DNA of 64,000 bases from Geosiphon pyriformis uo1 (taxonomy: Eukaryota > Fungi > Glomeromycota): NCBI GenBank assembly GCA_016748015.1, contig JAAOMT010000664.1, positions 1,487,892 through 1,551,891 of the forward strand. Reading direction: 5' to 3'. Under the pieces are notes generated by a model, which had not been told where the DNA came from, searched no databases, and was given only the letters and a program-made list of their open reading frames with translations. Below, piece after piece: positions 8,161 to 64,000 of this stretch (the stretch's first letter is position 1; every line of letters starts with the position of its first letter). The translations under genes were made by a program, and so were the position numbers.

Positions 8161-10299
8161 ATGACCATGACCAAAGCAAAAAGTAAAAAAGTTGCACCTA
8201 ATATCTGTTCTGAGATATCTAATAAAATTTCAACCAGAGGAGCTTTTTTTGTTGTAGAAACAACTAGGCAGAACATTTTAGAAGCCTTTTTTTTATCCAG
8301 TAATCATGAAAAGCTGTCTTTGATAGTCACTGAAGCAACTTCCTCATCTTTGGCTGGTTTCTCACCAATTAAAGTTCCCTCAAAGAGACACACTTGGGTT
8401 AGTCCCAATGTTGTCTCCACCCTTACTAAAAGCCCAAAAGTGTTTAATAATAGACTAGTTAACAAGCTGGTGTTTCCTTCCATAGCTTCAGCATCTGATG
8501 CTTCTAACACCTCCTCTTCAAAAAAAATGGTCAGAAAGACCAAAAGTTCAGAAAAGTGGGAGCAGTTACTTGTCTCTGCTATTGTTACACCGAATCTCTT
8601 TGTGGTTTCCAATAAGATCTTAGATAAGATTTCAGATAAGATCTCTATAGTATCATTCAGCACATCATCCAAGATGGGCCAAGATCAACTACTGGCTGTA
8701 TTACCAAATGTGGTGTCTTCTGGTAGATCATTGCCGGTTTTAGAAACAAAGCAATCTCTTCCTGTTGAGTCACCTGTTCTTGAAAACTGGGCTGACCAAA
8801 TGGAAACTGAATCATCTCCTTTTCTAGTTTCTGGTGCTACTTCTGGTGGTGCTTAGAAAACTATTATTAGTTGTCAAAGGTTTGCTGGGTGGGTGGCCTC
8901 TACTCTGGTGCTTGATGCTATTTTTAAGATCAAATTGGCTCATGTTAAGACTGTTTTTCAGTCAGTACATGGTTTTTTGGGTGCAAAATTAGTATTAAAA
9001 GACAATGTGAAGCTGTTTTGTGTGGAGTTTGCTTCTCAAGTGTCTTTGGAAGCTGTGTTTTTGGTTGAGCTTACAAGTTCTATACACTTGGCCACTCTTA
9101 AAATTGCCAAGTCTTTGGTAGTTTCTAAGTCTGGTTTCTCTTCTGCTGCTGTTGTATTGCATAATGTGCCTTTGGGTGTGTCTATTGCTGACATTAAGAC
9201 AGTTCTCAGTGTGTTTGGTAGTGTTACCCATATTGTATTAAAACCTGTTGGTATTTGGCAGTACATGGTGGTTTATTTTGAGAAATTAGACTCTGCTATG
9301 TCTGCTTTGAATCATTGGTCAGTCTTGGTAAGCAAGAATAATATTAAAATTCTCCCTCTGGTGAATCAAAATGAGACTATTTTGTCTCATGATAAGTTTA
9401 AGGCCAAGTTGGTCAATCTTCTTTCTGGATGCACAGCTTTTGAGATTAGTGATATGATTTCTCAAGTTGGTGGTCAGACATGTTTTATTCCTCATTTTCC
9501 TGAGTCTGGTCGTTATTCCTGGTTTGCTCTGATTACATTTGGTTTCCAAGCTAATTTGAACTCTGCTATTGTCAAAACTGATACACTAAGAAAATACTGT
9601 ATTTGGTAGGAAACTTCTGGTTGTTGGCATTGTTTCAAGTGTTAAGAGCTGAGCCATCTGACTGCAGACTGTAAGATTTCTCTGCCTCCCTCTCCCAAGT
9701 TTCTCAAGGTGTTTACATCATGCTTTGTTGGTTCTAAGTCTTATGCTAAGGCTTCTGCTTCTTTGGGCTCCTCTGAGTTTTTATCTCTGTTATCTCTTGT
9801 TTTTTCTCCAGTTGTTGTTGGTGATTTTTTGGTGCTGTTCTGTTTGTCTTCTTTGAAATTTGATTTAACTAAGCTTTCTGTTTTGGTTGAGTCTATTGAT
9901 AAGCTTATTGGCTCTTTGGTTACAACTTTTAAACAGTTTATTAATAGTGATTTAATTACAAGTAGTGCTCTTGGTCTTAGGATCAATGAGGTTTTGGTAC
10001 ATATGAGTTTCTTTAGTAGGACTGTTGGTAAGTTGGGGAGGGAAGTGGTTTCTTTGAAAAAAAAATGCTGCATAGAAAACATTGATATGTCTGGTAATTC
10101 AGAGCTTCTGCCTGTTGTGGATGATGAGATGTTTTCTAACTTAATGTCCCTTTGAGAACATAAGTCTGTTGATGTTAAAATGGATCCCTTTAAAACTGCT
10201 GAGTGGCTGGTTGGTTTGGTTTCTTACAGTGCAACTTTGTTTTCTGTTATTTAGAAGATGTTATCTCTGAGTAAGTTTTTTTCTGTAGCATTAACATAG
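8161..10299 (+). mobile_element. ORF1-only LINE derivative, copy 1 (~712 codons, RRM-like + CCHC), followed by a ~120 bp 3' tail to ~10420
   Basis: One reading frame interrupted only by stops. Clear homology to LINE ORF1 at 14208 (AVVLHNVPLG/AIVLKEIPVG, VGIWQ/VGLWQ, WSVL/WSIL, DKFKA/DKFRA). CFKC.ELSHLTADC knuckle. No ORF2 follows. Confidence 0.8.
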
Positions 10300-10559
10300 T
10301 GTGTTCTTGACTGGTCTAAGTGGCTGGTTATGTGTAAAAAACACATGATTAGTGCCTAGTTTAGATTGATTCTTCAATGTATTGTTCTAGGTAGCTTTTG
10401 GACCTTGTTCATTAAACTTTATTTTCAAAAACTTTGTATATGTAAAATAATTCATTTTATTTTAGGTTAAATTTTTTATTTTACTATTTTTTAGCTTTAG
10501 TGTAATATAATAATATTTTGTTTTTAATCTTAAATATAATTAGTTGGTTTAGTAGGTAA

Positions 10560-11100
10560 TTATTGTGTTTTTTTGTTATTTCTAAGAATTGCTAATATTG
10601 TTAATTGCTGTTCTATAATTGTTTTTTAGCATTTCTATAGCTGATTTGTTTTTTGGTATAAGATAACTTTTTTGATAATTGTTTTTGTTAAAAAAAAAAT
10701 ATTTCTAGTTTAATAAATAGTATAATATTTTTTTATAAATTAGTTTGAAAAAAGTGATTTAAGTAATATTTTGCTTCAATTTGGTATATAAATAATACTA
10801 AAGATATAAATAAGTCTTATTTTTGCATATTTTTATAACTTATTTTTGTTAAGATTTTATATAATGTTTAATTAAATTATTTTATCAATTTGTTGGTTTA
10901 AAAATAATATAAGAATAACAAAAGTCATTTTATTTTAAATTATTGGCTTAGTTTTATCAGAGTACTATTAACAAAATAAATTTTTTGATTAGATAATAAT
11001 TTTTTTGAACATTTATGTTAACAAATCAAATTTTGGTATATAAATTTAGTTATTGTTTTAGTATATACAGCTTAAATAGCTTGAATTTTTAGTTATTTAA
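10560..11100 (-). pseudogene. Very decayed Gypsy gag remnant
   Basis: Translation QIEAKYYLNHFFSN*FIKKL resembles the Q.ET.YY...ILDQFI.GL motif of the other gags. Confidence 0.4.
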
Positions 11101-11849
11101 TAAAATAGTCTATAACTACTACAATATATTAATTTTTTTAGAAGTAATTAATAAAGATTCAACCAAATTAATTTCAATTCTATTAAATAGATTTCAATTG
11201 AAATAAATTAAAGTGGTTTTGTTATTTTGGTTCTTTTTTTTTTGTTAACAAAAGTCACAATTGTAAATATATTTGAAAATATCTTTATATATTGTTAACT
11301 AATAATATAAATTAATTGTTTTTTCTAAAATAATATCTTTGTTGAAATGTTTTATTATTAAATTGAAGTATATATCAAACAAGATGTTTTTTTTTCAATA
11401 TTTTTTATAACTTATTGTAATATAGTATGATTTTAATATTCTTGTTAGTATAATTGTTTATTGTAAATAAAGTAGTTTTAAGTTTGTTTTTATATAACAC
11501 TTTGTTCTTATTAAAATAGTTTTTTTTTAAACTAAAATATTAACAAATATTAATATAATTATTAATAAATAATAGTATTTATTTAATAAAACTAAACTTA
11601 AGTCATTCTTAATAAACTGTTAATATTAATGTTTTTAGTTTTTTTTTATAATTTACTTTATAGAAAAATTGTTATAAATAAATACTTTATTTTGTATATA
11701 TTTTTTAAGTTGTAATTTGTTAATTAAATAAGTTTTTCATAATTAGTATATAGATTAAATAATTAATAAAGATAATATTTTCAGTTTTATATAGGCTAGT
11801 AAATAGTAAAACACTCTAAATATATAATATTGTATATTTTTTTAGTTGT

Positions 11850-13860
11850 ATTGATGCTTTTACTGACATAGATAATAGAATATTTCTTATTATTAAATTT
11901 AATTTAAGATAAAATTGTTTTAAGAACATTTTTTAATATATTAGTAACTATAATAAACTGTTTTTTAAAATTCAAATAGATTAATATTAGAGCTTTAATA
12001 AATTAATACTTAAAGTAATTAAAAATTTTTTGTTGTTTAGTTTTCTATATATATAATACATATTTTAAGAACAAATAATAAAAGAGTTTAGTAATATCAA
12101 AGAATTTTTTAATAAACCAATAGTAATATCTTATAAATTTCTATTAATTTATTCTTTAAATCATTTTTTATTATTATTGGTTATAAAAACAAAGCAAATT
12201 TTTTCTGTTGGATTATTTGTTTTTGGAAATTGAACTAACTAAATAGAAACCAAATCAATTTTTTTACTAGTTTCTGGTATTGTTATTAATAGTGCTTAGA
12301 AAATTATTACTAATCATTAAAGATTTGTTAAGTAAGTAATCTTTATTTTGATGTTTAATACAACTTTTAAGATTAAATTAGTTTATGTTAAAACTGTTTT
12401 TTAGTTTGTGTATAATTTTTTAGATATAAAATTGATATTAAAAAACAATATAAAGCTTTTTTATATAAAGTTTATTTCTTAAAGATTTTTAAAAACTGTT
12501 TTTTTGGTTGAATTTATAAGTTTTGTTTACTTAATTATTCTTAAAATTGCTAAATTTTTGGTGGTTTCTAAGACTAGTTCTTGTTTGTTACTATTGTACT
12601 ATATAATATGCTTTTGAATATGTTTGCTATTAACATTAAAATAGCACTTAGTAAGTTTGATAAGATTATCCATATTATGTTGAAGCTTACTAGTATTTAA
12701 TAATATATTGTTGTTTATTTCAAAAAGCTAGATACTCTTGTGTTTGTTTTGAATTATTGGTTAGTATTGATAAGTAAGAATAGTATTAAGATTCTCTCTT
12801 TAATAAATCAAAATAAGACTATTTTGTTTTGTAATAAATTTAAACCCAAGTTAGTTAATCTTTTTTCTGGCTATACTATCTTTAAGATTAGTAATATAAT
12901 CTTTTAAGTTAATAATCAAACATGTTTTATTCTTTACTTTCCTAATTTTAATTATTATTTCCAGTTTATTTTGATTATATTTGGATTTTAAACTAATTTG
13001 AATGCTATAATAATTAAGAGTAGTACATTAAAAAAGTATTATATTTAATAAAAAACTTCTAATTGTCAGTGCTGTTTTAAATATTAAAAAATAAATTATC
13101 TAACTGTAAACTATAAGATATTTTTATCTTTTTTTTCAAGATTTCTAAGGTGTTTACACTACATTTTATGAGTGCTAAATCTTATATTAAGACTTTTGTT
13201 TTTTTAAGCTTTCTTAAATTTTTACTTTTAATAATTTTTGTTTTTTCTTCTGTAATTGTTGATAATTTTTTGGTTTTCTTGTAGTTGACTTTTTTGGAAG
13301 CTAATTTGGCTAAATTGATTATATTGATTGAATTTATTATTAAGTCTATTGGTTTTTTAGTTATTGTGTTTAAACAATTTATTAAAAAAGATCTTGTTTT
13401 AAACAGTGTTTTTAGTTTTAAGATTAACAAAATTCTGGTGTATATAAATGCTTTTAGTAAAGCTGTTAATAAGTTAAAATAAGAGATAGTTACATTAAAA
13501 GCTAAATATAACTTTAAAAATATTGATATAATTGGTTCTTATATAAGTTTGTTTGCTATTAATAATAATATATTTTTTAATTTATTGTTACTTTGAAAAT
13601 ACAAATTCACCAATATTAAGATTAATGCCTTAAAAACTGCTAAATAACTAATTAAATTGGTTAGTAATAGTGTTATATTATTTGAAATTATTTAAAAAAT
13701 GTTTTTTTTGGGTAAATTTTCTTTTAAAATATTAATATAATATAACTTAAACTGGCTTAAGTAACTAATTATATATAAAAAATACATAAATCATATTTAG
13801 CATTAAAATACTTAGTTTGTTTTTAATTTCTAAATAGTAATTAGGTTATATTCATTAAAT
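11850..13860 (+). mobile_element. ORF1-only LINE derivative, copy 2 (heavily AT-mutated)
   Basis: Colinear with 8230-10420, including the post-stop tail (ctggcttaagtaact...ttcattaaa vs ctggtctaagtggct...ttcattaaa). Confidence 0.8.
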
Positions 13861-14131
13861 ATATAATAAAATAATAATATTATTATTATTTATTTTATAA
13901 TTATTATTTAATCAAATTAAATTTATATAAAAAGTTATTTTTAATTGGTTTATACTTTTATTTTTTAGAAATATATTTAATAATTTAAAAACTAATCAAT
14001 AATAATTTTAATTAAAAATTTTTTTTCAAAAAAACTTATATTAATATAATTAAGTTTTTAGTTAAAAATATTATTACTATTGTTTTTATTGTTTAATTAC
14101 TAAAAATAATATAAAATTTCTTTCTTTCCTT

Positions 14132-16781
14132 CATTCAAAATTCCCAAAAAAGAGTCAAAAAGTTTTTTTGAAAGAAGTTTTTTACCATTCAGTACAATAA
14201 ATCAAAATTGTTCTTTAATTACAAGGCCACTGTTGGTCTTGTTATTGCTGTTATAAAGAAAACTATTAAAGTTTCTGGTTCTGAGAGTGGTTTCAAGATG
14301 GTTGCATTGAGGAAGAAGAGGAAGGGAGGTGTATTGGCAGAAGATATTGATAATAGAGGAGTTGCTACTAAAGCTCTTGGTGCTTGTTCATGGGGTTCTG
14401 AAACAGGTAACACTACTGAGTTTGAGAGTATTGACATGGAGGAGGAGTGCTTGGTTGAAGAAACCAGTATTGACTATAGTGAGAGTGGTGCTTTTGTGGA
14501 AGGGGATCCTAATCAAATGCCAAAGAGTTTGCATGTAAAGACCAAAAAGATGTTAGAGAAGCCTCTGGGTGTGATTGATTATGGTATTGTCAATCCAAAT
14601 GATGATGTATTAGATGATTCCTTTCTTTTTCCGCCCCCTCTATCTATTAAACTGTCTGTTCAAGTGTCTGTTCACAAATCTTTTGCTTTAGATATTAATC
14701 TTGTAACCATTGCTGAGAAGTCTTCTCAGAAAAAATTGAGTTTTATCAGAAAAATTTTTTCAAATGTGAATGGTTTTGGGGGGGCTTCTACTTTCTCAAA
14801 ATTTGGTGAAATTATTTGTGTGACTTTCACTTTGGAAAAGACAATGATGGCTGCTGGGAAGTTGGCAAATGATCATGGTGTTGTGGTAAACACCAATCTC
14901 AAGTGCCCTGTAAACAACCATACAAATTGGGCAATTGTGTTAAAAGAAATTCCTGTAGGAACTTCTATTGAAGCTGTGTATACAGCTGTGTCTATATTTG
15001 AACAAATTAAGATGATTAAAATGCAATTGGTGGGTTTATGGCAAAAGATGATTGTCAAATTGGAAGATTAAAGTCAGGCTGATCTGTTGGCTGCTGAATG
15101 GTCGATCCTCATTGGTAAAGATGCAGTTCATGTGGCCAGGGCTGACATTGATAAACAGATATGAGATATTAATGATAAATTTAGGGCATTGCTCTACACT
15201 CTTCTTATGAAAACAATGGCTCATGATTTGTGGGATTTCATTGGTTCTGTGGGTGAGAAAACATGCTTGATTGAACACAACTCTGTCAATTATACTCACA
15301 CATAATGTGCTACTGTGTGTTTTGGTTCTGAAGATAACATGACTCAGACTGTGGCCAATACACCAGTTATAAAAGGCATTGGTCTTCACTGGTCACATTT
15401 GGTTACTCTTTTATGTTCTGTTTGCAATTCCCTAGGTCACTCGAGTTTGGTTTGTAAATTAGCTGGTGTGTCCTCTATTCCTAAGAGCAAAAGGACTTCT
15501 TTCTCAGCCCAGGATAAGTTTAGATTGGCCAAAATTTCTGAGAAAAAATCTGTGTCTGTTTCTAGGCCTCTAGCTTTTGATAGAAAAACTTGGACAGATA
15601 TGGTTGGCAAACCTCCTTTCTGTGTGCTTTTTGGTAATTCATTTTTACTTGGTTCCATCAATAGTGATAAACCTATCCTTCTTGTTGGTAGCATTTTAGA
15701 GATTCATCTAGTCAGTATTAAAAGCAGTCTTGTCAACCTTGCGGATCAGATTAGTGAGTTGACTAAGAGATTGGATTCACTCATACCAATGGTTTCCCAG
15801 CCTAATCCTAGATGTCAGCTGCTGGTGACCCCCTCTTCCCCCCATCTCAGATTCAAAAGGAGGATACAGTGATGGAAGTGGGTTTGAGTGAAGCCACTAA
15901 TGATGAAACTGCTACAATTGTGATTCTTTTGGCATCCCTTTATGTTGTTAAGTTGAAAAAAATGTTGAAAGAACTCTCCAAATCTGTTTTGAGCTTATTT
16001 GCTTACTTCGATGGTTTGGTTTTAGCAAGTAGTGTGTCTTCACAAACCCTTTCTCAATGAGTGAGCTGATCTGGAAAATTGCCACATGCAATGTTCGTGG
16101 AATGAACAATCCTGTAAAACAAGATGATGTCATTCATTGGCACAAGGACATGAACAATTTTATTTCTATTGTTATGGAGTCAAAGCTTAAAAGAAAGATA
16201 CAACTCTGGATAACCAACAGATTTGTTGGTGTCTGAGTGTTTACTTCTGGTTTGAATTCTGGTTATCTGGGTGCTGATATTGTAATTATTATGAACTTTT
16301 TTTTAGCTAGGCATGTATGTAAAGTCTCTAAAGTGCCGGGTTGGCTCTTATCCATTAAATTGCTTTTCAAAAACAAACTTTTGGTGTCAATTTTGGGACT
16401 CTATGCTGGTGCATTTGCGGCAGTTCGGTTTTCTTAGGCTGATGTGATCAACTCTCTTATTGCAAGGACTGTTAATGAGTCTTTTTTTATTGTTCTTGGC
16501 GGTGATTTTAATGAAGATGGGACTCATAGATGTGCTAGTTTCAAAAAATGCCTTGATTTGGGGCTGGTCAATTTTTTGTTTGGAAGCCATACCTTGAAGA
16601 TGCCTACTTGGGCAAATTCTAGAGGTGTTTGAAAAACAATTGATTTCATGTTCATGTCTCCTAATCTGGTTAATACGCTAGTGCATCATAATGTTTTGGA
16701 TGTCAGTGAGCATTTTGACACAAATCATCAGGCTGTTTCTGTGTCTTTGGGTTTGGGTAGACTTTTGGACACACAGTTGAA
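14132..16781 (+). mobile_element. L1-like LINE copy 1 (ORF1 + APE endonuclease), 3' part deleted
   Basis: ORF1 ~14208-16060 with CSVC...GH....C knuckle; ORF2 starts at 16057. Confidence 0.9.
16057..16781 (+). pseudogene. LINE ORF2 apurinic endonuclease domain
   Basis: IATCNVRG, ESKL, LGGDFN, TW.N....KTIDF, T(N/D)H motifs. Confidence 0.92.
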
Positions 16782-17521: not shown

Positions 17522-17833
17522 AAGATTAAGCTCTGTCGAAATCAAAGTTAATTTTTTCATTGAATTCTAAGTTGCTATAGTAGTCTAATACTGTATTATT
17601 AACTTGTTGTTATAATTCTTGAAATTGTGAGTTGGTAAGTTGTCCAATACTGTTGGTTGTTATTATGTTTATGGTTGGATTCAATAATACTTTGTGACAA
17701 TTTTTCAAATGCTTTGAAAATTCCATAAACTGTTTTTTGAATTGAATGTACTGTTGGTTTTTCCAATAAAACTTTCTAATTGTTGGATTGTTGCTTTGTC
17801 AAATATTCTAATTAATAGATAGATTTATGATTT

Positions 17834-19100
17834 TTATGTGTGTCTCATTCTTAACAAACAATTAGCATTGGCATTTTTGGTACCTTCTTTGTATTTGATA
17901 ATATAATCATATAGTGCTAATATTTGTAACCATCTGGTATATTTTTTTTTTAGTACTTTTTTGTTATTTAATCAGATCAAACCTCTATGATCTGTGGTAA
18001 TATTAAAAGATTTGTACCAAAAATATGTGTCAAAGTAAATGCAACTCCAGACTACTGCTAAGCATTTCAGTCTGTGTGCTGCATAGTTTTGCTCTGCCAT
18101 ACTGAGACTTTTACTGATATAAACAATTACACATTCTCTTCCATTATCATCTTTTTGTGAAAGAATGGCTCCAAGTCCAGTTTCAGAGACATCTGTGGCC
18201 AAAATGAATTTTTTGTTGAAATCTGAATAGATCATTATTGGTGATTCAATGAGCTTTTGCCTAAGATACTTAAAAGCTTTTTGCTGTGTTTTAGTCCATT
18301 CAAATTTCACATTTTTGGATAGTAAATAATTAAAAAGTTTGGTAATGTTTGAAAAGTTTTCTACAAAGCAACAGTAGTAAGATACGAGTCCTAAAAAGCT
18401 TCTAACTTCTAAAACATTTTGAAGTACTGGAAAATTTTTCACTTTGTCTATTTTTGATAGATCTGGTTTTATTCCATCTTTTCCAACTATGTGTCCTAGA
18501 AATGCTAGCTCATTTTTTCCAAAGAAACATTTTTCTAAATTTAATTTAAGTCCAGCATGTCTTAATTTCTTAAAAACTTGTTGTAAATGTTGGAGATAAT
18601 TCGTGAATTTTGGCAAGAAAACATTTGTATCATCCAAGTAGACAACAACAGATTGCCACAGAATTCTGGAGTAAATTATGTTTATTAGTTTTTGGAATGT
18701 CGCAGGAGTATTTGTTAATCCAAATGGCATTACATTGAACTCATAATTGCCATTTTGTGTTGTGAATGCTGTTTTATGTCTGTCTTTTGGGTCCATTTCT
18801 ACTTGCCAATATTCACTGGTCAAGTCAAGTGTAGAAAACCATTTTGCTCCTCCAAAAATGTTGAAGATTTTGTCAATTAATGGTATTGGGTATGAATCTT
18901 TGGTTGTTTTGCTGTTTAGTTTGCGATAGTTGATGCAAAATCTAATTTTTCTGTTCTTTTTTCTTAATAAAACAACTGGTGAGAATCATAGGCTCATTGA
19001 TAGTTGAATTATTCTTTTTTCCAACATGCTTTGGACTTCTTCTCTGATAAAATTATGCTTCATTGGTGAGACATGGTAAGTGCATTGTTTTTCAGGTCTG
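17834..19100 (-). pseudogene. RT-RNase H of B
   Basis: KTAFTT, MPFGL, YLDD, ATD.S..GLGAIL, TDH; ends RMRHT*. Confidence 0.95.
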
Positions 19101-21942: not shown

Positions 21943-22925
21943 TGTTACTGGAGGTTTTTGGTCTCTTTTCTTGAATGTTGTTGATGTTGATTTGCTGTGA
22001 ATTCACATTTCTAGGAAGTAGTTGAACCTCCAGTAACTGAATTTATCTTCAAATTATTTCTTATAATTTGAACTGCTGGGCTTATAAGTGGAATGGCCAA
22101 TTCCGTACCAGTTGCTTTGTGTAGTTACATTGTAGTAAACATCAACTCTTTTCCAGGAATTGCTCATCTGGAAGCTCACTAAAAATGTGTAGTTACTTTG
22201 CTGTGAAAGTCAACTCTTCTATAGAAATCTTGTCTATAGGCTATCCTAATGATTATAATAAGAAAATAAAAGAAAGAAAATAAAAAAAATGTAAAAGAAA
22301 TGGAATTCTGTTAAGAGAAACGTTTTCTATTTAGGCCTGGAGTTACTAACAGTTTATTGAAATTGGTAGCTAATCAATTTCAAAACTGTTTAGTGGGAAT
22401 TGGTTAATTTTAAAAGGAAAATAATTAAGAATTTGATTTTTTGAATTATTTGATATTTATTTCGTTTTTGTGTATAAAAGATGATTTTAATTGTTAAATC
22501 TAAAGTAAGATACATTTTCTCAAAGAGAGAAGCTCTTTTTTTATACAACTTGTTGTAACACTATTCTATGAACTTGAACTTTGCTCTTTTCTACAATTTC
22601 ACTGAACTAAAGATACATTTTGGCGAACTACAAGTTATTTCTGTGAACTATTAGATATTTTGGTAAACTATCAATTATTTTGGTAAATTTCTACAAATTT
22701 TGGCAAACTTTTGAATGTTACATATTTTGGGGTATTGCATGATTAATCATTGCAATTAGGTTACATCTGTGTTATGTACAAATTGGATTATTAATTAAAT
22801 GATAATTTCGGACATTTTGCTAATATAATAAGTAATAATTTGAAACAATAATATATGCTAATTAATGATAGGAATTATAAAGATAATTTCATGCTAAATA
22901 ATATCTCTAATTTCGTCTTGTAACA
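21943..22925 (-). repeat. 3' LTR of C
   Basis: TG...CA; PPT GAGGAGAAAG at 22929-22938. Confidence 0.95.
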
Positions 22926-23613
22926 TAACTTTCTCCTCAAAACTGAGCTCCATCGAAGTCCAAGTACTGTCTGTAATTTCCAGATAATAATCCAAAATTA
23001 TTGAAGAAATTTGGTCTGAAAATTGTTGAAATTTCAGTTCTGTGAGCTTTCCAATGTATTAAATCTTCAAAGGCTGTAAAATTGGGTTTTGTAGGACGTT
23101 TTCACAGGTGTAGAATAGGTCATAAAGTCTAAGAGCAGCTCTTAGTTTATAATGACTATTTGTAGGCCTAGCTGTTGTCTTGAATTCATTGTGGAGTTGT
23201 TTTCAAATAGCTTTTTTTGTGAGGTTTGCTGCTATAAGCTCCTGTTGTTGTTCGTGAAGTGTTTTTCCAATGTAAAAATATCTATATATTGGAGTATAGT
23301 TGTAGTTTTCTTCATTAAGACACAGTTGAAGTTTTTGTTGAATAGTAGTATTTAGTGGAATACTAATAAGAGTGAGCATTAAGTTTTCTCTTAAAGCAAG
23401 CTTTAAAAGTTCTGGCAGGTGAATTCCAGAATAACTTCTTGTGTTCTTCTTATACGGGTGATATTTTTGTGCATTTGGGGCTAAATTTGTAACTAATTCT
23501 GTTTGGGTATAATTAATGTGGTTTCTAGTAACAGTAATGGATAATTCGGGTATTGTTTTTAAAGCTAACATTAGTTTTTGGGATAATTGTTGAATGTTTT
23601 GAGGAATAGTCAT
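22894..23613 (-). pseudogene. ORF3 of C: ~239 aa protein of unknown function downstream of integrase
   Basis: Single frame with 2 premature stops; homologs at 58803-59510, 63114-63812, 34604-35239 and 17520-17820. Confidence 0.8.
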
Positions 23614-23756
23614 TATAAAAAATTTGAAAATAAAGGAAAATTATTTTTGGTGTATGGGTTTTTATGTTATTTTTGTTTTGTTTTTGTGAGATTATTTCTA
23701 AATTATAAGGAGATAACTATAATAATAAATTTAAATTAAGTGTTTAAGTTGGGAGA

Positions 23757-25121
23757 TTATTCAATGACAAATATTGGTTCTAAATTTTGGGAAATATCTT
23801 TGGGATTGATTAAAGGGGAATGTGTACCAATTTGTGGAATTAATGGTTCAGAATTGTTTTTGGAATTATAGTGTTTCAAACAATCTCCATATGCAACTTT
23901 TGCTAGGATTTTGTTATCAAGTCTTAGCTTGTATGATCTATTGCCTAGGACTTCATGGATAAAGAATGGTCCATCTCATTTATTTTCAAATTTTTCACTC
24001 TATTGTTTTTCAGCTTTAATTCTGTATAAGAGAACTTTGTTTCCAATTTTAAATCCATTGGTAACTGGAGGCAATTTGTTGTCATGCCATTCTTTTTGTT
24101 GAGCTTGGGAGTATTTAATATGGGTGGCTGCTATTCGTTGTTTTCCTTCCAATGTGCTAAGCAGAGTGTAGGCTCTTTGTTATAGTGTTTCCTGAAAGTT
24201 GTTTTTATTAATTGGTTGTACTGGGTATGTTTTCATTATGAAACTAATTGGTAACATTGCTGTTCTTCCATAAGTTAAATCAAATGGTGTGTGTTTTGTG
24301 ATATTTTGTTTTAGTGTTCTATATGCTAGTAACACTAATAGAATAAAGAGATCCCATTCTTGCTCAAAATTGGTTGAGACTTTGGCTAATGATTTACACA
24401 ATGTTTTGTTGAAATGTTCTACAAATCCATTTGTTTGTGGATGGTAAGGCAAAGATAATGGTCTTTTAATATTAAATCGTCCACAAATTTCCTGGATTAA
24501 ATTGTTCATGAAATGTGTTCCTTGATTAGATAAAAGTTCTATTGGGCATTTATGTCTACAAATAATGTCTTCATAAATGAAGTTTGCTACTGATTTCGCA
24601 TTTGCTTGTTGAATGGCTCTGGCTTCAGGCCATTTGGTAAGATAGTCTACAGCTACTGCAATATAATGGTTTCCTTGGTTTGTGATAGGGAGTGGTCTGA
24701 CTAAATCGATACCAACTCGGTCAAAAGGCTGTCCAACTTTGATTGGGTTTAAAAGTTCTGTAGGGTGAGTTTCTCCTCTTCTTTGACAACTATCACAAAA
24801 CTTAACATATTTATGAATGTCTTTTCTCATTTAAGGCCAAAAATAATATTCTAGTGTTCTTTGAGTGGTGCTGTTTTTTCTTAGGTGTGCTGATGAACGG
24901 TCTGAGTGCATGTTATATAAAATGGTTTTTTTTTCATGTTCTTGTATTAATCTGAGTGGATTGTCTAGGTTTCTGAAATTTTGATAATAAATCATGTTAT
25001 TGTGTAAGAAGTATTGTTTGGCTTGTTGTTGTAACCAATGTTTTTTATCTGAGGACCAATCTGTTGGGATTGTTAATGTCTCCAAATATTGTTTAAGATT
25101 GTTGTAGTTTTCGGGGTTCAT
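23757..25121 (-). pseudogene. Integrase of C, stand-alone ORF (~454 aa), GPF motif, no chromodomain
   Basis: Own ATG; H..SAH, CDSC, GIDLV, SNQG, VEHFN, DGPFFI. Confidence 0.93.
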
Positions 25122-25169
25122 TGTTTGTTGTTTTGTTGTTAATTCAAATAGGTGTTTTTTTTTTATGTT

Positions 25170-26420
25170 TTAATCTTGCCTCATTTTTAAGAGACAATTA
25201 ACATTGGTGTGGAGTTTTCCTGGTTTGTAATGTATAATGTATTAGTAGTTGGCTAAAAATTCTGTCCATCAGATTTGTTTGGCATTCAGCTGAGTGTTTT
25301 TGTTTTGAAGCCATTTGAGTCTAATATTATCAGTGATAATATCGAATTCTTTGGGTCTGAGGTAAAGGTTGAAGTGATGTAGAGCCCAGATTACTGCTGC
25401 AGTTTCTAATTCTATTGCAGGGTAGTTCTTTTTAGCTAGTTTCAATGTTCTGCTAGCATAAGCAATTACTCGCTCATTTTCATTGTCATCTAACTATGAT
25501 AGGATGGCACCAAAGGCAGTATAAGAGGCATCTGTTGCTAACTGAAATCAGTTGCTAAAATCTGGGTAGGCAAGAATTGGAGCTGTGGTTAGTTTTTCTT
25601 TGAGAATTTCAAATGCATTTTGGTGTTCAGTAGTCTATTTGTATTTGACGTTTTTGGTGATAAGCTGGTTGAGAGGTTTTGCAATTTCTGAGAATCCTTT
25701 AATAAACTTCTAATAGTAGGAGGCTAACCCTATGAATTTTCTTAGTTCTGTAGTGTTTTGAGGAGTTTTGAAGTTTTTGACAGTACTGATTTTTCTAGGG
25801 TCCAGTTTGATTCCATCTTTACTAACAATGTGATTAAAAAAGACCAAACTCGTTTTTCCAAAGTAGCATTTTTCGATGTTTAGTTTCAATTCTGCTTTCC
25901 GTAATTGTTGAAAGACTTCTCACAGGTGTTTTAAGTGTAATTCAAAAGATGGTGAATAAACATTAGTATTATCGAGATAAACAACTACTGATTTCCAAAG
26001 GAGGTCTTTGTAAACAACATCCATGAGTCTTTGGAATGTTGTTGGTGCATTGCATAATCTGAAAGACATTACATTGAACTCGTAATTTTTTTTTTGAGTA
26101 GTGAATACTGTTTTGGGGCAATCTTTGGGATCCATGGCAACTTGCTAGTATTCACTTTCTAAATCTAATGTCAAAAAGTATTTGGACTTTCCAAGAGCAT
26201 CTAGCATGTCATCAATTTGGGAAAGAGGGTAGGCATCTCCAATGGTGATGCTATTGAGTTGTTGATAATCAACACAAAATTGTATCTTTCCATTTTTTTT
26301 TTAACTAAGACCACAGGTGAAGCCCATGGACTCATTGATAGTTGAATAAGCCCATTGTTGAGCATCCGTTGTATTTCTTTGTGGATAAATTGGTGACTTT
26401 CTGGAGCAACTCGGTAGGCT
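25170..26420 (-). pseudogene. RT-RNase H of C
   Basis: FCVDY, YLDN, ATDAS, ELET.AVIWAL; ends MRQD*. Confidence 0.93.
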
Positions 26421-26964
26421 TGCTGTCATCTTGGTTTGGCATCTCCTGTGTAGATTTGATGTTGAACCAAATCAGTTCTTTCTAAGTTATTGTTGTTTTT
26501 GGCAAAGATATTGGCAAATTCTGTAATTAGCTCTTTAAGCTGGTTTTGTTGTTGTGGTTCAAGTTGTCCCATGTTGATTCGAAATAGTTTTTCCATGACA
26601 ACATGGTAGTTTTCAGAGCTGAGGTTTGGGTTGATTTTTGGTAGTGAATATCTAATAATTCCAGAGAAATTGGAGACTGTTTGGGGTAATTCTTGTTGAA
26701 AAATATTACTGTGAATGATTCCAATTTCTAAGTTATTTAATAAAACTATGGGATAATTGTTAGGATTGTAAAAAGTAACTTGGACTTTCTTTGTTCCTTC
26801 TGAAATATAAATGTTTAGAATCGAGATATTATGTTCCAAGCAGATTCATTTATTGAACTCAAAAATTTGTTGGGTGGTTATTGGCTTTAAGCAGGTATAG
26901 ATTTCGGGGTGTTCTCCAAAAGGTAAAATAGTGATTAATTGGAGAAGGTGTAAAATCTGGTGAG

Positions 26965-27410
26965 ACTCATTCTGTTTATTGAGAGCTATGTTTACTGGAA
27001 CTGTGAATTGTCCAGTTGAACCAAAACCTTGGGTTCTTTTTTCACTTTTTCCCAATTGTTCTCTTTGATTGACTAATTGTAAACCCAAAATGTTGATTAA
27101 GGGTAAATAAATGGCTTGGACAATTTTCTCGGCATGTTTAATCTTAAATGGCTTGTTAGTTTTATTTTGGAGTATTACTGTTATATTACCAGTATATCTA
27201 GCATCAATTATTTCTCCTCTGATATTGATTCCTTTGCTTGCTAGAGAGGACTGGGAGGCAATTTGAACCATTGCTCCTGGTGGGATTTTGAGGGCAATTT
27301 TGAGGTTGATTTTTGTGAGAGATTTGGATTTAAGAACAAGAATATCCTTGTTTGAATATCTTAGGTCATATCCAGCATTAATTTCATGTGCTTTTTCAGG
27401 TTTTATTCTT
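26965..27410 (-). pseudogene. dUTPase domain of C
   Basis: AGYDL, ASQSSLA, IIDARY, KIVQ, RTQGFGSTG. Confidence 0.92.
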
Positions 27411-28399
27411 TGTCTGTTGTTGTTGAAGTATTTGAGTTGTAAGACAGGGTGATTTTCAATAAGATAGATGGGTATTGTTTCAATTTCTTCTGTTGCTTCA
27501 GGTTCTCCAAATTCAATTTTGTTTTTATTGTTTTCATTGGGCAGGGGAATGCTAAGAGCATAGTATTCAGGACACCATTGCTCATCGCAAAACATTATGT
27601 ATTTTTCACACAATTTAATGTTCATTTGCTTTAGCCATTGAGCTTGAGCTTCTTTAGTTGGGTAGGTGTAACTTGTGATTTGATGGTACACTTCTACTTT
27701 ATCTTCATAATTGTATCCAGCTAATTCCAAAATATATTCAATATATTCAGCTTCTTTCATTTAATGAACATCTTTTTTGGTAGCTCCATTAACCAATGCC
27801 ATTGCTAGGTTGAAAATAATTTCAGCATCATGGGGGTAGTGATAGAGTTTGTTGAGAGCACTGTTGTATGCTGCATTAAAGGATGTTCCTCTTTTGACTT
27901 TTTTTGAAATTGATAAAGCATATTGGCAGGTTTAATTGCAGACTCCTCCTCTCATTGCTACATCAATCCAATTGCATTCTTCTGGTAGCGTATCTCCACA
28001 AGTCAAACAAGGGGTGTTGTCCTATTTTCCACTTTTTTTTATTAGATAGCCCTATTGTTCTCTGTGACAAGCTTTGCAGTAATAACAAATATGATTTTCA
28101 TATTCTTCTTTAGGTAAAATGCAGGCTCCCATTGAGAAGAGTTTCTTGTGGCAGTCCTTGCATTTGAGTGGAATGTAAGGGTGTTGTTTTTTTGGTTGTG
28201 GTTTAGAATATGGGATGTTCTATTCAGGGATTTCTGGTTCCTCTGGATATAATTTTGTTGCAAAATACGTTTGCTCAGTTTCTTCAGCCCAGTTAGATGT
28301 TGATTCAAGAACCATAAATGTTTCGATTACAGGCTTTTCTTCTTCCTCTTCAAATTCGAAGACAGGAGCTTTCTCTGATTGTTTGTTGAATGTACCACA

Positions 28400-28800
28400 A
28401 GTAGCAGGTACTTGGGCATGTTGTCCTTGATAGAAGAGTTGTAATTCTTGGGTTTCCCAGTCTAATTTTGCATTGGCTTTTTGGAGCCAATCATTTTCAA
28501 CAAGAGTTTAATACTGGGGCGCGTTCATTATAAGAACTTTGACTGGAATGGTGATTCCATCAAGAGTGAATGGAAAATTGTCAATTTCTTCTATGGGAGT
28601 CTTTTTTATGCCATCAGCAGTAACAATTACTGTCTGAGCTGGTCAGTCAACATTTTTTTTAACTGTTGCATCAACTGGTAGGTGATAATGCTTCCGGTGG
28701 ATCCACTGTCTAGAATCAAGCAAATTGCCTTTCCTTCAACTTCTGCTTCAGTGTACATAGCAGTGATTGCTTTTTGTTTGTTGGCGGCTGCATTGCTGAG
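28400..28800 (-). pseudogene. Aspartic protease of C
   Basis: LILDSGSTGS catalytic motif. Confidence 0.9.
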
Positions 28801-29299
28801 CAGGAATAGTGACTCATTTGCTTCGAACTCAAAAAAGAATATATCTGAAAGGTTGGCGTTTTCAGCAATTCTGGCTGGTGGAATTGTGATAGGAGTATAG
28901 GAAAGATTTTGTTGTCATGCTGTAGCTCTACCTTCCAAAAGTGCAGTATGGTAAAAATCCTGTTCTTCTGGCATTGTTAAATAACTGGGTTGAGTGTAAT
29001 AGTGATTGGGTCTTGGTTGAGCGGAATTTCAGGGAACCAATTGGTTGTTCAAACTGATTCTATTGTTGTTTACTTGGTATCAGTTTTGTGGTGTGAATTG
29101 ATTTTGTGTAATCAATCTTTGAGCAGGTACTTGATAATGTTGTGTGGGTGGTTGTTGGTATTGCTGTTGGATTGGCTGTGGGTGGGCTGATAATAGTTAT
29201 TTTGGTATTGGGGTCTTAGTAGATAATAAGCTGGTGGTGGTGGTTGATAATAAGATTGCTGTAGTGGAAGATAACGTTAATTACTCCTATTTTGTTGGT

Positions 29300-30771
29300 C
29301 TCATTGTAGCTTTCTGCAATTTCTTTTCCAGTGGCCAGGAATTCTACAGTAATGGCAATTCTGAGACTGGTTATTAGAGGGTGATGTGAAGTTATTTTGA
29401 TTTTGTCTTTGGAGTAGTTGATATCTTTGGGGTTGCTGTTGTTGTTGGTTGGTGAAATAGTTTTCAACTTTCTTTGTGAGTTGGTCGATTTTCTCCTCAG
29501 CTGCTAAGCTGGTTTCTCCAATGGCCAAGTTTACAAGTTTTGTGCAATTGGTCTTTTCTATGGCCATTTCGTATCTCTTTGCATGCTGTATGGCAGAGTT
29601 TAAATCTTTTGGGACATGTGGGTGAACCTTTTTAATCAGTTTATCCTTTAGACCAGCAATAAATTGATCCAAGATTTGAACATCAGAATAATAATCATTA
29701 GTTTCAAGTTGGCAAATTTGTCTGAGAAGTTTGTTAAATTTCCCAATATAAGTCATAACAGATTCGGAGAGTTCTTGTTTAATATTGTGAAAATGATTTC
29801 GAAGAGTAATGGAGGTGTTGTTATTAGTGAATTGTTCTAAAAAGGCAGTTTTGAAAGCTGTCTAGTCATTAAAAGGGGTGGTCAAGTTTTCAAATTATTC
29901 ACCTGCTGTTTCTTTGAGAAAGTAGGGAATTATTCTTAACATTCTGGCAGCATTCTATTCATTTGCATCTCCAGCTTTAGTAACTTGGTCGAGCCATTCT
30001 TGGGAACTGGTCTCAATATCTTCTCCATTAAATTTGAAAATTTTTGCAATATAAGCTGTTATTTTGTTTTCTTCCTCATTATTTATTAATTACCTTTCTT
30101 CTTTGGATTCTACTTCTTCTTTAATGGTTTCAGAAACGTTTTTTTTGTTGGCTAATGTTTCAGAGTATTTGCTTGTGTTTTCTGCTAAATAGTCAAGAAG
30201 ATTGGTACTAGTCTGAAGGGTTTTTTGTTGTCTGGTGGGATTTCTGGGTAATGTATAATCTTCTAGTCTTGAAAATCGATTTAAAGATAAATTAGGAGTT
30301 TCTGCTTGTGCAAGTGAAGCTGGAAAAGGTGTAATAGTGAGTGGGAGTTTTGAACTGGTTCCTTGTTTAGGTGTTTGTAAGTGTTTGGCGGTTGTTTTTG
30401 GTAGTATTGGAGTATTTAGGGTGGTTTTTGAGTATTGCTTCAATTTTTGTTTGCCTTTGTTGCTTGTTTTTGTCTCTGATTCAAAGTCAAAAGAGTATTT
30501 AAACTGTACTGGGTAAGTAGGTAGCAAGTGTTTTACTGTTCAGGTCTTCTGTTTCCAATTGTGAATAGTGCACTAAATTATTTTAGAGGTTGCTTCTAAC
30601 TTCTGAAATGTTGTAGTTTCCAAAAAGATAATTGTTAATGCAGTTTTCAATATATTGGTATACTGATTTCTTGACAACTTCAATTCCGTCTGAAATGTTG
30701 AATTTTTGCTTGCAGTGTGTGTAAATTGACTGGTAATACTCTAGAGTTGCTGTGTTTGGTGTGGTTGCCAC
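29300..30771 (-). pseudogene. gag of C
   Basis: KFNGED...EWLD, ILDQFIAGL, CHYCRIPGHWKRNC knuckle. Confidence 0.88.
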
Positions 30772-30798
30772 TTTGAATTTGTTGTTACTGTGTTATTT

Positions 30799-30814
30799 CC
30801 ATAAGAGAGCACCA
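30799..30814 (-). promoter_or_regulatory. PBS of C (TGGTGCTCTCTTATGG)
   Basis: TGG 2 nt downstream of the 5' LTR; tRNA isotype not assigned. Confidence 0.8.
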
Positions 30815-30816
30815 AA

Positions 30817-31799
30817 TGTTACCAGAGGTTTTTGGTCTCTTTTCTTAAATGTTGTTGATGTTGATTTGCTGTGAATTCACGTTTCCAGGAAGTAGTTGAA
30901 CCTCCAGTAACTGAATTTATCTTCAAATTATTTCTTATAATTTGAACTGCTGGGCTTATAAGTGGAATGGCCAATTCCATGCCAGTTGCTTTGTGTAGTT
31001 ACGTTGTAGTAAACGTTAACTCTTTTCCAGGAATTACTCATCTGGAAGCTTACTAAAAATATGTAGTTACTTTGTTGTGAAAATCAACTTTTCTACAGGA
31101 ATCTTGTCTGTAGGCTACCCTAATGATTATAATAAGAAAATAAAAGAAAGAAAATAAAAGAAATGTAAAAGAAATAGAATTCTGTTAAGAAAAACATTTT
31201 CTATTTAGGCCTGGAGTCATTAACAGTTTATTGAAATTGGTAGCTAATCAATTTCAAAACTGTTTAGTAGGAATTGGTTAATTTCAAAAGGGAAATAATT
31301 AAGGATTTAATTTTTCAAATTATTTGATATTTATTTTGTTTTTGTATGTAAAGAATGATTCTAATTGTTAAATCTGAAGTAAGATACATTTTCTCAAAGA
31401 GAGAAGCTCTTCTTTTATACAATTTGTCGTAACACTATTCTATAAACTTGAACTTTGCTCTTTTCTACAATTTTGCTGAACTAAAGATATATTTCAGCGA
31501 ACTACAAGTTATTTCTGCAAACTATTAGATATTTCAGTGGACTATCAATTATTTTGGTGAATTTCTACAAATTTTGGCAAACTTTTGAATGTTACATATT
31601 TTGGGGTATTGCATGATTAATCATTGCAATTAGGTTATATCTGTGTTATGTACAAATTGGGTTATTAATTAAATGATAATTTCGGACATTTTGCTAATAT
31701 AATAAGTAATAATTTGTAATAATAATATATGCTAATTAATAATAGAAATTATAAAAATAATTTCATGTTAAATAATATCTCTAATTTTGTCTGGTAACA
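30817..31799 (-). repeat. 5' LTR of C
   Basis: Same length as the 3' LTR and colinear with it. Confidence 0.95.
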
Positions 31800-34603: not shown

Positions 34604-35239
34604 ATGGAAATACCAGATCATATTTACACCATAGCTCAGCAATTATTCTAGGCATTAAATTAACAACCATTAGACATGGAAATTATCATTAACAACCAAA
34701 CAATTTGCTATTCAAACACCAAAAAAAAGACAAAGAATACACCATATCAGTAAATACCAAAGAGTGATAAAAACTGGTCAAATAACATAATAGAAAAAGT
34801 AAGGAACACTTTTGGGAAAATACTTATTAGGGCATTAACAGAAAAACTCACAAAAGAGAATTGAAAGCAATAGACAGAACAACTTCCAATATAATACTGT
34901 TACTACTAGTTAGGTCGAAAGTTGAATATTCAGGAGTTTTATATTGACAAATCCAAAAAAGTATTTAACCAAAACATAATACAGCAAATTGAAGAATTTA
35001 TTGGAAAAAAAACAAACTTAATACTATATGTGAGAACAATTTATCGACTGCACAACATATTTCAGAACTATCCAGAAATACTGTTACACTCTAACATAGA
35101 AACTATAACTATTAATCAATAGGGAAGAATAAATAATGTACAAATAGAAGACATGAAAAATAAAGTCAAACAAACAATATTAGAAAAAGAAGTATTAGAG
35201 CTAATTCAAAATGAAGATTTCGATAGAGCTCAATATTAA
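34604..35239 (+). pseudogene. ORF3 of A2, divergent homolog of ORF3 of C
   Basis: MEIPDHIYTIAQQLF*AL aligns to MTIPQNIQQLSQKLMLAL; YY*LGRKL to YFYIGKTL; RLHNIF to RLYDLF. Confidence 0.65.
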
Positions 35240-35253: not shown

Positions 35254-36361
35254 TGTTACTCATAAAAAGAAAACAGATATAGAGAAATAGTAGACCAATA
35301 AGCAAATAGTATATAGCACATGAGCACATTGCTCAGCAATGTAGAGCAATAACAGAAATTATGACACATTGCTTAGCAATGTGGAGCGATATTAGAAAAT
35401 TAGGGCACATTACTTAGCAATATGAGTATTGCTCAAGAAATCATAGCACATTGCTTGGGAATATGAGCAATCTCGTAGAACATCAATTATATATATATAG
35501 CAGTAGTGTTAGAAGTAGAAAAAGCAGAATTCTTCTATTAGAGACCTCTTAGTTTAAATTTCATCTAAGCAACTTTCTATTCACAAATATTAATAAATAA
35601 TTATTCACTATTTCAACCCACTCTCTACTATCAACACTTCATGTTAATAGTAATTAATACTTAACCATACTAGATCAATAGCTCTTAATTACAGTTATTG
35701 ATGGATTCTAACTTGTGTATTGTCTTGACTTATTTCTTTATTTTCTTCTTTTATTTTCTTTTTTTTGATTGTATTTGTTGTATACTAACTGATTAAAGAT
35801 TAAAGCACTGAGTAATTAATGTTACAGATAGCCTGGTAAAAGACCCAGAAATAAGGATAAAATTATATATATATTAACAGATAGCTTATCAAAAAGACAC
35901 GACTGCTAAAATAAACTGGCCACCAAGCTGAAGACAGAAATTGGGAACACCACTCACCAACCAACTACTTCATCATTGAATCTCTGTCTATTATACAAAG
36001 GACACCAAGGAAATTAAGAAAAAAACAAGGGACAATGAATTATATTGAATACACTGCTTTTATTTTCTTTATACCATTACATCATGCTAAAATTAGAACA
36101 AAGAGAATATTCATATTCTCTGCTAAATTAAACTTAAAAATCCTTCTAACCTTAACTCCCCTTCTAAACAATAATATTAGCACAGAATTACCGAGGATAT
36201 AAAACTTGCGAATTAAGTTTTTTATTCTCCGCCCTCTTAATCAAAACCTTCAGATAAAGACAACATACCAATATTACCACCATCAGCCATCAGAGTAGAT
36301 ACTGAGCACCAAGTTACAGATATGTTATTTGATTTGAGACCCCAAATAATCACTTGTAACA
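35254..36361 (+). repeat. 3' LTR of A2 (type A, 1108 bp)
   Basis: TGTTA...TAACA; matches 7120-8036 apart from a ~230 bp indel. Confidence 0.93.
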
Positions 36362-37159: not shown

Positions 37160-37345
37160 TATTACATAATAACATAAAAAAACATAATAATACAAAATAA
37201 CACAAAATAATGCAAAATAATATAAAATAATTCAGGATAATATAAGATAATACACAATAATATAAAATAATACAAAATAACTAATAATAACATAAAATAA
37301 CAAGTTATAACATAAAAAAATAAAACAATAGCTAAAATAGCAAGC
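37160..37345. repeat. Degenerate 10-bp tandem repeat (TAAYAYAAAA)n
   Basis: Periodic taacataaaa/taatacaaaa/taatataaaa units. Confidence 0.7.
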
Positions 37346-58566: not shown

Positions 58567-58586
58567 NNNNNNNNNNNNNNNNNNNN
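58567..58586. other. Assembly gap (20 N) inside the U3 repeat array of LTR D
   Basis: Run of n. Confidence 1.
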
Positions 58587-58802: not shown

Positions 58803-59510
58803 CTAAAATTCTACTGGTAACATAATCTCCTCCTCAAGACTGAGCTCCATTGAAGTCCAAGCACTATCTGTGATATTGAGATAGTGATCCAAAATAATTG
58901 AAGTAATCTGGTCTGAAAATTGTTGAAATTTCAGTTCTGTGAGTTTGCCAATGTATTGGACTTTCATTGGTTGCAATATTAAATTTTGTAGAACATTTTC
59001 ACAAGTATTAAACAAATCATAGAGTCTAAAAGCTGCTCTAAGTTTGTAGCGAGTGTTTGTTGGTCCAGCTGCTGTTTTGAATTCATTATGAATTTGTTTT
59101 TGTATAGCTTCAGGAATAAGATTTGTTGTTTCAAGTTCCAGTTTTCGTTCATAAAGTGTCTTTCCAATGTGAAAGTATTTATAGATAGGAGTGTGTTCAT
59201 TGTTCTGTTCATTGAGAAGTAGTAGAAATTTTTGTTACATTGTAGCATTTGGTGGAATGTCAATAGGGACAATTAAAAGATTTTTTTCCAGTGCTTGTTT
59301 CAAAAGTCTTGGTAATCTATTTTCAGAGTGACTTCTTGTTTTTCTTCTATAGGAGTAATAGTTTTGTGGATGATTTACTACTGGGGCTGTGGTTTTTTTC
59401 TGAATGTAATTAATTTGACTTCCATTAATTGTTATGGATAAGTCAGGAAGTGTTTTCAAGGCTAACATTAACTTTTAAGATATTTATTGAATATTTCGGG
59501 AAATAATCAT
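58803..59510 (-). pseudogene. ORF3 of D
   Basis: Single frame with premature stops; strongly similar to ORF3 of C. Confidence 0.8.
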
Positions 59511-62172: not shown

Positions 62173-64000
62173 TGTTACTGGAGGTTTTTGGTCTCTTCTT
62201 AGCTCTTGTATGTTTGTTGTAATGCTGTTAATTTACGATTATGGGAAGTGTTTGAACCTCTAATAACTGAATTTATCCTCAAATTATCTCCTATAATTTG
62301 AGCTACTGGGCTTATAAGTGGAATGGCCAATTCCTTGCCAGTTGCTTTTATGTAGTTATGTTGTAGTAAACATCAACTCTTTCCCAGGAATTGCTTGTCT
62401 GGAAGCTCACTAAAAATGTGTAGTTACTTTGCTGTGAAAGTTAACTCTTTTACAGGAATTTTGTCTGTAGACTACCCTAATGATTGTAATAAAAAAATAA
62501 AAGAAATATAAAAGAAATGTAAAAGAAATAGAATTTTGTCAAGGGAAACGTTTTCTATCTAGGCCTGGAGTCACTAACAGTTTACTGAAATTGGTAGCTA
62601 ATCAATTTCAAACTGTTTAGTAGGAATTAGTTAATTTCAAAAGTGAAATAATTCAGAATTTGATTTTTCGAATTATTTAATATTTATTTTGTTTTTGTGT
62701 GTAAAGGATAATTCTAATTGTTAAATCGAAAATAAGATACATTTTCTTGAAGAGAGAAGCTCTTCTTTTATACAACTTGTCATAACACTATTCTATGAAC
62801 TTGAACTTTGCTATTTTCTACAATTTTGCTGAATTAAAGATATATTTCAGTGAACTACAAGTTATTTCTACAAACTATTAGATATTTTGGTGAACTATCA
62901 ATTATTTTGGTGAATTTCTATAAATTTTGGCAAACTTTTGAATGTTACATAGTTCGGGGTATTGCATGATTGATCATCACAATTAGGTTACATTTGTGTT
63001 GTGTACAATTTGGGTTATTAATTAAATGATAATTTCGGACATTTTTGCTAATGTAATAAGTAATAATTTGAAACAATGTTAATTAATGATAGGAATTATA
63101 AGATAATTTTATGCTAAATAATATCTCTAATTTTGTCTGGTAACATAACCTCCTCCTCAAGACTGAGCTCCATCAAAGTCCAAGTACTGTTTGTCATTTC
63201 CAGATAATAATCCAAAATTATTGAAGAAATTTGGTCTGAAAATTGTTGAAATTTCAGTTCTGTGAGCTTTCCAATGTATTGAATCTTCAAAGATTGAAAA
63301 ATTGGGTTTTGTAGTATGTTTTTACAGGTGTGGAATAGGTCATAAAGTCTAAGAGCAGCTCTGAGCCTGTAGCAACTGTTTGTTGATCCAGCTGTTGTCT
63401 TGAATTTATTGTGGAGTTGTTTCTGAATAGCTTCTTTTGCGAGGTTTGCTGTTGTAAGTTTCAGTTTCCATTTGTAGAGTGTTTTTCCAATGTGAAAATA
63501 TCTATAGATTGGAGAATATTCAGTGTTTTCCTCCTTGAGACACAGTTAAAGTCTTTGTTGAATTGTAGCATTTAGTGGAATACTAATTGGAATGAGCATT
63601 AGATTTTTTCTTAAAGCAAGTTTTAAAAGTTCTGGCAGGTGAATTCCAGTATAACTTCTTGTGTTCTTTTTATATGGGGCTAAATTTGTAACTACTTCTG
63701 TTTGGGTATAATTAATGTGGTTTCCAGTAACAGTAATGGATAATTTGGGTATTGTTTTTAAAGCTAACATTAGTTTTTGGGATAATTGTTGAATGTTTTG
63801 AGGAATAGTTATTATAAGTGATTTGAAATAAAAGAAAATTATTTTTGGTGCATGGGTTTTTATGTTATTTTTGTTTTGTTTTTGTGAGATTGTTTCTAAA
63901 TTATAAGAAGATAACTATAATAATAAATTTAAATTAAGTGTTCAAGTTGTGAAGCTGTTTAATGACAACTATTGGTTCTAAATTTTGGAAAATGTCTTCG
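62173..64000 (-). mobile_element. Gypsy copy E (C-type): 3' LTR 62173-63145, PPT, ORF3 63114-63812, integrase tail; nested in the RT of D and continuing beyond the window
   Basis: LTR and internal sequence colinear with 21943-23800; PPT GAGGAGGAGG. Confidence 0.93.

Follow-up and report, generated by a model that had tools for sequence, protein, structure and literature searches.

The window, by which we mean the whole stretch of DNA analyzed here (64,000 nt of Geosiphon pyriformis), holds Ty3/Gypsy LTR retrotransposons nested into one another. Element B is split by the insertion of element C and element D by that of element E, and A2 is the 3' end of a different family on the plus strand. 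LTR sequence makes up 41.2% of the Geosiphon genome, a load described as among the largest of arbuscular-mycorrhiza-type fungi (PMC11952901). Element C carries the open reading frame under study, ORF3, and is laid out as follows (L001 is a related element from a metagenome).

21943-31799, minus strand: element C, inserted within element B
21943..22925, minus strand: 3' LTR of element C (TG...CA, 983 nt), sharing 93.3% identity with the 5' LTR
22894..23613, minus strand: ORF3 copy C, 239 codons plus stop, decayed; last 32 nt within the 3' LTR
22926..22954, minus strand: conserved DNA motif (pre-PPT motif) and polypurine tract (PPT), overlapped by the ORF3 end; seen in C, D, E, A2, B and L001
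22990..23355, minus strand: predicted conserved all-helical domain, residues ~87-208 of copy C; boundaries transferred by alignment, approximate
23428..23475, minus strand: loop with a basic Pro-Tyr motif, residues ~47-62, PY-NLS-like; a low-confidence region in the model of a homolog
23614..23735, minus strand: AT-rich spacer of ~122 nt from the pol stop to the ORF3 ATG (lengths counted from the sequence)
23736..25169, minus strand: integrase (IN), zinc-binding and core domains, then the C-terminal part; stop-interrupted
25326..26300, minus strand: reverse transcriptase (RT)/RNase H, stop-interrupted
26849..27760, minus strand: Pol stretch with dUTPase, between protease and RT (PF00692, E 5e-20)
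29010-28511, minus strand: protease
30817..31799, minus strand: 5' LTR, followed by TGGTG, a putative primer-binding-site-like stretch (named without a tRNA comparison)

The Pol order of element C (protease, dUTPase, RT, RNase H, integrase) is of the Gypsy type and, together with the paired TG...CA LTRs, the PPT and the primer-binding-site-like TGGTG, identifies it as a Ty3/Gypsy element. Among fungal Gypsy elements, a dUTPase between protease and RT has been described for one family (PMC2864245). In both C and L001, pol stops ~35 residues past the C-terminal part of the integrase (tail read by eye). No chromodomain is present at the integrase C terminus, and the host element is thus not a chromovirus.

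Element C is not bordered by a perfect target-site duplication. Its flanks, GCAC and GCGT, may both derive from GCGC through CpG decay. The window also contains plus-strand open reading frames of another repeat (14172-16060, 8134-10155 and 42737-43843). Those starting at 14172 and 15306 on the plus strand returned no meaningful Pfam match, and several chimaeric gene models of Geosiphon incorporate sequence related to these two.

Position and copies of ORF3

ORF3 lies in sense orientation, after the integrase and before the 3' LTR, in a Ty3/Gypsy element that carries a dUTPase. The earlier note had placed it at 22894-23613, which is correct: the minus-strand frame has 239 codons, with two internal stops at codons 137 (TGA) and 185 (TAA) and a terminal TAG at 22896-22894. 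Copy C is 88% identical to the intact Geosiphon gene model P0002, and the remaining five frames of 22960-23613 contain 14-21 stops each. Searching the window by tblastn with intact database ORF3 proteins, we recovered all five copies named before (C, D, E, A2 and the fragment in B) and located a sixth that the earlier note did not contain.

58803..59510, minus strand: ORF3 copy D, 235-aa subfamily, three stops (tblastn match 59510-58806)
63114..63812, minus strand: ORF3 copy E, of the 239-aa subfamily, with a mutated start codon, one stop and a deletion of 7 codons (tblastn match 63812-63117)
34604..35239, plus strand: ORF3 copy A2, of the 211-aa subfamily, with eight stops; PPT and LTR come after it (tblastn match 34604-35236)
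17529..17812, minus strand: C-terminal ORF3 fragment of element B, 72-77% identical to P0151
36612..37094, plus strand: sixth ORF3 copy, heavily decayed, closest to P0157 (45%, E 1e-21)

Every ORF3 copy in the window is broken; gene models from elsewhere in the genome include many that are intact and full-length. The motifs previously proposed for the family (YF.IG..L, RLY..F and IGKLT) are visible in our alignments, and the 239-aa and 211-aa types align from end to end at 23% identity (E 1e-7). Within element B, at 17529-17972, one deletion removed the integrase and the first half of ORF3, so that RNase H now abuts the middle of ORF3.

At each of five ORF3 stops that we checked, a sister copy reads CAA, which fits heavy C-to-T decay. 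Very AT-rich tracts (GC 0.14-0.23) are found at 10001-14000, 36001-40000 and 50001-58000, and traces of IN, RT and ORF3 remain there.

The reading frame of ORF3 differs from that of pol in element C. Across the elements, the spacers between pol and ORF3 measure ~59, 122, 149 and 316 nt and pol has its own stop, which argues against a fusion of ORF3 to Pol. TATA-like words occur in the spacers of A2 and L001 and are not clear in those of C, D and E; they were read without statistics in DNA that is AT-rich. Integrase sequence is joined to ORF3 sequence in 17 gene models from several subfamilies (at most 197 X-free proteins were searched), and these chimaeric models indicate that the adjacency of the two genes is general.

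At its 3' end ORF3 runs into the pre-PPT motif, whose counterpart in L001 lies at 3085-3117. In C, D, E and L001 the motif is read as ..ELSLEEE.., and the A2-type families translate it in another frame, as ..GAQY*. The C terminus of ORF3 follows a DNA or RNA signal rather than a need of the protein.

Selection on ORF3 and range of its homologs

The earlier note had proposed that a dN/dS near 1 between families would speak against a conserved gene. We instead find values of 0.15 (0.07-0.24) for C versus D and 0.19 (0.11-0.31) for D versus E, in both cases with the PPT-overlapping end excluded and in spite of post-insertion decay, which inflates ORF3 dN/dS. The core genes of C and D give 0.14 for RT and 0.26 for IN. 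The comparison of C with E, which belong to one family, yields 0.46, a value inflated by decay after insertion; pairs with A2 or L001 are saturated in dS and were left out of the argument. ORF3 differences fall mainly on third codon positions (62/35/94 for positions one to three), and 11-21 stops interrupt the other frames. ORF3 is under purifying selection between families at a level like that of RT, and it is a real conserved gene, the third gene of a dUTPase-bearing Ty3/Gypsy lineage. Its properties are those of a conserved sense additional ORF (aORF-3S), including conservation comparable to the core genes. Over deep divergences, ORF3 changes far more quickly than RT or IN (25-35% versus 49-64% identity), a behavior that does not choose among mechanisms.

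The divergence of C (21943-25169) and D (57925-61054) is uneven: their LTRs are 86% identical and dS is 0.57 for IN, 1.3 for RT and 1.5 for ORF3. This difference between LTR/IN and RT/ORF3 suggests inter-family recombination or a strong constraint on the LTR.

We next turn to the range of the family. A protein search returned 202 ORF3 homologs, and the 120 that are listed are all hypothetical proteins of Geosiphon pyriformis, with up to 89% identity. With HMMER we obtained 71 matches among 1.84 billion representatives; of the 10 looked up, seven are from Geosiphon, three are metagenome proteins and none comes from another named fungus. One lies on the metagenome element L001, which has the order RT-RH-IN followed by an intact ORF3 of 230 aa and shows the same PPT/LTR junction. 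Compared with the C family it is 31% identical in ORF3, 63% in RT and 64% in IN. Its pol contains two stops (772-774 and 1564-1566) although its ORF3 is intact.

A profile built from three metagenome ORF3 members located five further members. The metagenome proteins P0196, P0198, P0189, P0195 and P0197 form a distant ORF3 group without the PY loop and without the PPT-dictated tail, and this group could bridge to carriers of the domain outside LTR elements. We found no relative of P0152 or P0196 in viral contigs, none of P0159 in GTDB contigs and no meaningful ORF3 match in phage records, and none of 301 bacterial genomes matched profile A8 in a search run without a positive control. A literature search, covering mostly open-access articles without their supplements, located no paper describing ORF3 in Geosiphon or other Glomeromycotina.

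The predicted protein and its basic Pro-Tyr loop

We could not detect a transmembrane segment in any of 10 ORF3 proteins, in which the best 19-residue Kyte-Doolittle mean ranges from 0.44 to 1.33; the view that ORF3 is not env-like is borne out by these profiles. Hydropathy over 11-residue stretches at the N terminus does not exceed 1.4, and the same region is modeled as part of a helix-hairpin module. The protein had been called basic, which holds locally for the loop and fails overall: whole-protein pI values are 5.2-9.3 and the C-terminal end is acidic.

The AlphaFold model of the homolog P0159, computed from 35 sequences, has a mean pLDDT of 79.7 and supports the helical character suggested before. 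It comprises a helix (residues 7-21), a hairpin (25-38), a low-confidence loop (41-51), a second helix (54-66) and then a helical domain, in which seven helices are predicted (P0159 residues 78-203). Modeled alone, the helical domain reaches a pLDDT of 92.5 and a pTM of 0.86. Arginine residues and an asparagine are conserved on and before the helix at 146-160. ORF3 is thus predicted to encode a soluble helical protein with a compact seven-helix domain.

Sequence and fold comparisons tied ORF3 confidently to no pol or env subdomain, and thus did not produce the match that the earlier note had named as refuting. Pfam holds no meaningful family for ORF3, a profile search against PDB sequences yielded no match at E ≤10, and fold searches (including PDB and BFVD) found nothing at E 0.001 or Z 8, an absence that does not show a new fold. 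The best structural Z overall is 5.4. Among matches spanning the whole domain, Spo0J/ParB (1vz0) comes top with Z 5.0 (89 aligned residues, r.m.s.d. 3.6), tied with unrelated entries; a second ParB entry scores Z 3.9, and a phytochrome-derived protein and CIP2A align over the whole domain at higher r.m.s.d. We judge the Spo0J/ParB score of the modeled domain to be within the noise for helical domains.

Kinship with ParB, DUF3102 (PF11300) or YhcG-N, an idea that arose from a motif likeness and weak fold matches, is unsupported. Profile-profile comparison with alignments built from bacterial loci, which are shallow, assigned ORF3 probabilities of 0.05-3.1%, whereas the three families match one another at 79-95%. 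The ORF3 register YW.IG...R.FY was aligned once, at a probability of 2.8%.

A likeness to a helical domain of Glomeromycotina proteins had also been suggested, and here an Atlas search provides a lead only. With the helical domain as query, the two top clusters are from Mucoromycota (score 0.94; 174 and 166 shared features) and 26 of the 30 matches are without a common Pfam family; the best score for whole P0002 is 0.79. The Atlas value is a feature score without an alignment and is uncalibrated for protein parts, and sharing of the ORF3 domain with Mucoromycota clusters remains at the level of a lead.

The low-confidence loop contains a basic Pro-Tyr motif. PY nuclear localization signals (PY-NLSs) sit in flexible segments. 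The pattern R/K/H-x2-5-PY, the C-terminal consensus of PY-NLSs (PMC2408616), is found in this loop in seven of nine sequence groups, most of them 25-35% identical, which share ancestry and are not independent. By group it occurs in 16/26, 8/26, 3/4, 4/4, 2/2, 2/2 and 1/1 sequences, and in 0/5 and 0/2 of the remaining two; one of the motif-positive groups is a single doubtful gene model. In the 235-aa group the full motif is present in 8/26 and PY in 15/26, some copies being without the upstream basic residue. Shuffled sequences contain the motif in 5-13% of trials. The surrounding pattern is matched by 102 of 120 close copies, of which 67 keep the proline and the other 35 have leucine, serine or phenylalanine, the only replacements seen and those that C-to-T decay of a proline codon gives. 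We regard the loop as a moderate lead to a predicted nuclear localization signal, which lends modest support to a putative nuclear role of ORF3. The PY motif could instead be a nucleic-acid contact.

Candidate functions and known systems

We tentatively propose that ORF3 encodes a separately translated nuclear accessory regulator that may act in LTR activation or anti-silencing, a possible reading of sequence and model that could well prove wrong. The protein would be expressed from its own short message, arising from an internal promoter or by splicing, and would enter the nucleus via the basic Pro-Tyr loop. It is predicted to begin with a helix-hairpin-helix module, followed by a flexible loop and the compact seven-helix domain, which may bind nucleic acid, namely the element's own DNA. 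The effect would be to keep the LTR transcribed against host silencing. Fold searches matched the ORF3 domain to no known DNA-binding fold, the pI of the whole protein (5.2-9.3) is not uniformly basic and PY is absent in two of the nine groups, all of which count against a nuclear regulator.

Additional ORFs located after pol and before the 3' LTR have been described before: those in sense orientation usually resemble env and have membrane segments, and some of those in antisense orientation encode nuclear proteins (PMC7264820). ORF3 resembles the aORF-3S of Athila and Bagy2 (env-like ORFs; PMC7264820) in position, orientation, presence across copies and families and core-like conservation. 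It differs from these, as far as they are described there, in having no transmembrane domain, in its fungal host, in overlapping the PPT and in running into the LTR. Gene23 of maize Grande is likewise an extra gene after pol without a database match (PMC7264820). It is antisense, with a nuclear product and its own promoter, whereas ORF3 is sense and its nuclear location and promoter are proposed; Grande is thus a precedent for a nuclear regulator (PMC7264820). In fungal Gypsy elements, a figure legend names an "additional ORF with unknown function" (PMC2864245). The elements of that study are from other fungi and bear a chromodomain, which the integrase of the ORF3 host lacks. CERV of the Caenorhabditis elegans element Cer1 (PMC10309623) is a novel LTR-retrotransposon accessory protein acting in the nucleus, as we propose for ORF3; CERV is made from a spliced mRNA and its function is demonstrated, while ORF3 is likened to it by description and its function is proposed (PMC10309623).

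ORF3 might instead be a cofactor of the pre-integration complex, carrying it into the nucleus or tethering the integrase to chromatin and so taking over the job of a chromodomain. The end of the integrase leaves no room for such a domain, ORF3 adjoins the integrase in every context seen and carries the PY motif, and the elements of the window are nested into one another as targeted insertion would give. Fused targeting domains, however, are unlike ORF3 with its own frame and variable spacer, and nesting is expected anyway where 41% of the genome is LTR sequence (PMC11952901). We consider this role unlikely.

Less likely still is a protein of the Rev or CERV type, which would help to export unspliced genomic RNA by binding it in the nucleus. 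The basic loop is nuclear-signal-like, Cer1 CERV is a precedent in being needed for gRNA export (PMC10309623), and if a 3' ORF is translated separately its message may be spliced, which creates a need to export unspliced RNA. On the other hand, no AG directly precedes the ORF3 ATG in C, E or L001, and ORF3 contains no conserved arginine-rich RNA-binding stretch.

Host-antagonist proteins are often soluble, helical and fast-evolving. ORF3, which is predicted to be soluble and helical and evolves fast, could by this likeness be a cytoplasmic particle-associated or movement factor or an RNA-silencing suppressor, a role of use in a multinucleate fungus. Its conserved PY loop, however, speaks for the nucleus, and a BFVD search returned no viral movement protein or suppressor at E ≤0.001; we rank this role lower again in probability.

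A degenerate env-like gene, suggested by position and sense orientation, is close to refuted by the missing membrane-spanning hydrophobic segment in 10/10 proteins, a length of only 211-245 aa and a small helical domain whose fusion-protein matches are generic long-helix entries only. A chance reading frame over conserved non-coding signals (PPT, LTR), or a host fragment carried along, would account for the last ~15 codons, which are set by DNA, but is refuted for the body of ORF3 by its dN/dS without that end and runs counter to the third-position excess, the intact L001 frame and the confident predicted fold, leaving it extremely improbable.

Taken together, ORF3 represents a family of accessory genes, so far without a name, in a fungal Gypsy lineage; its helical domain is confidently predicted and unmatched. 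A wider joint reading, which we hold to be rather unlikely, is that ORF3 founds an unrecognized family with a new helical fold, that the protein would be a nuclear regulator, a fungal counterpart of Tat/Rev or of plant anti-silencing factors, that it helped the lineage to fill ~40% of the Geosiphon genome, and that its domain would be found in many unannotated Mucoromycota proteins.

For Geosiphon, our findings mean that at least 120 listed "hypothetical proteins" are copies or chimaeras of a retrotransposon ORF3 and not host genes. An accessory gene under RT-level selection is a concrete candidate for how the elements escape host control, and its helical domain, confidently predicted and without a match, lends itself to structural work and may name a wider Mucoromycota domain.
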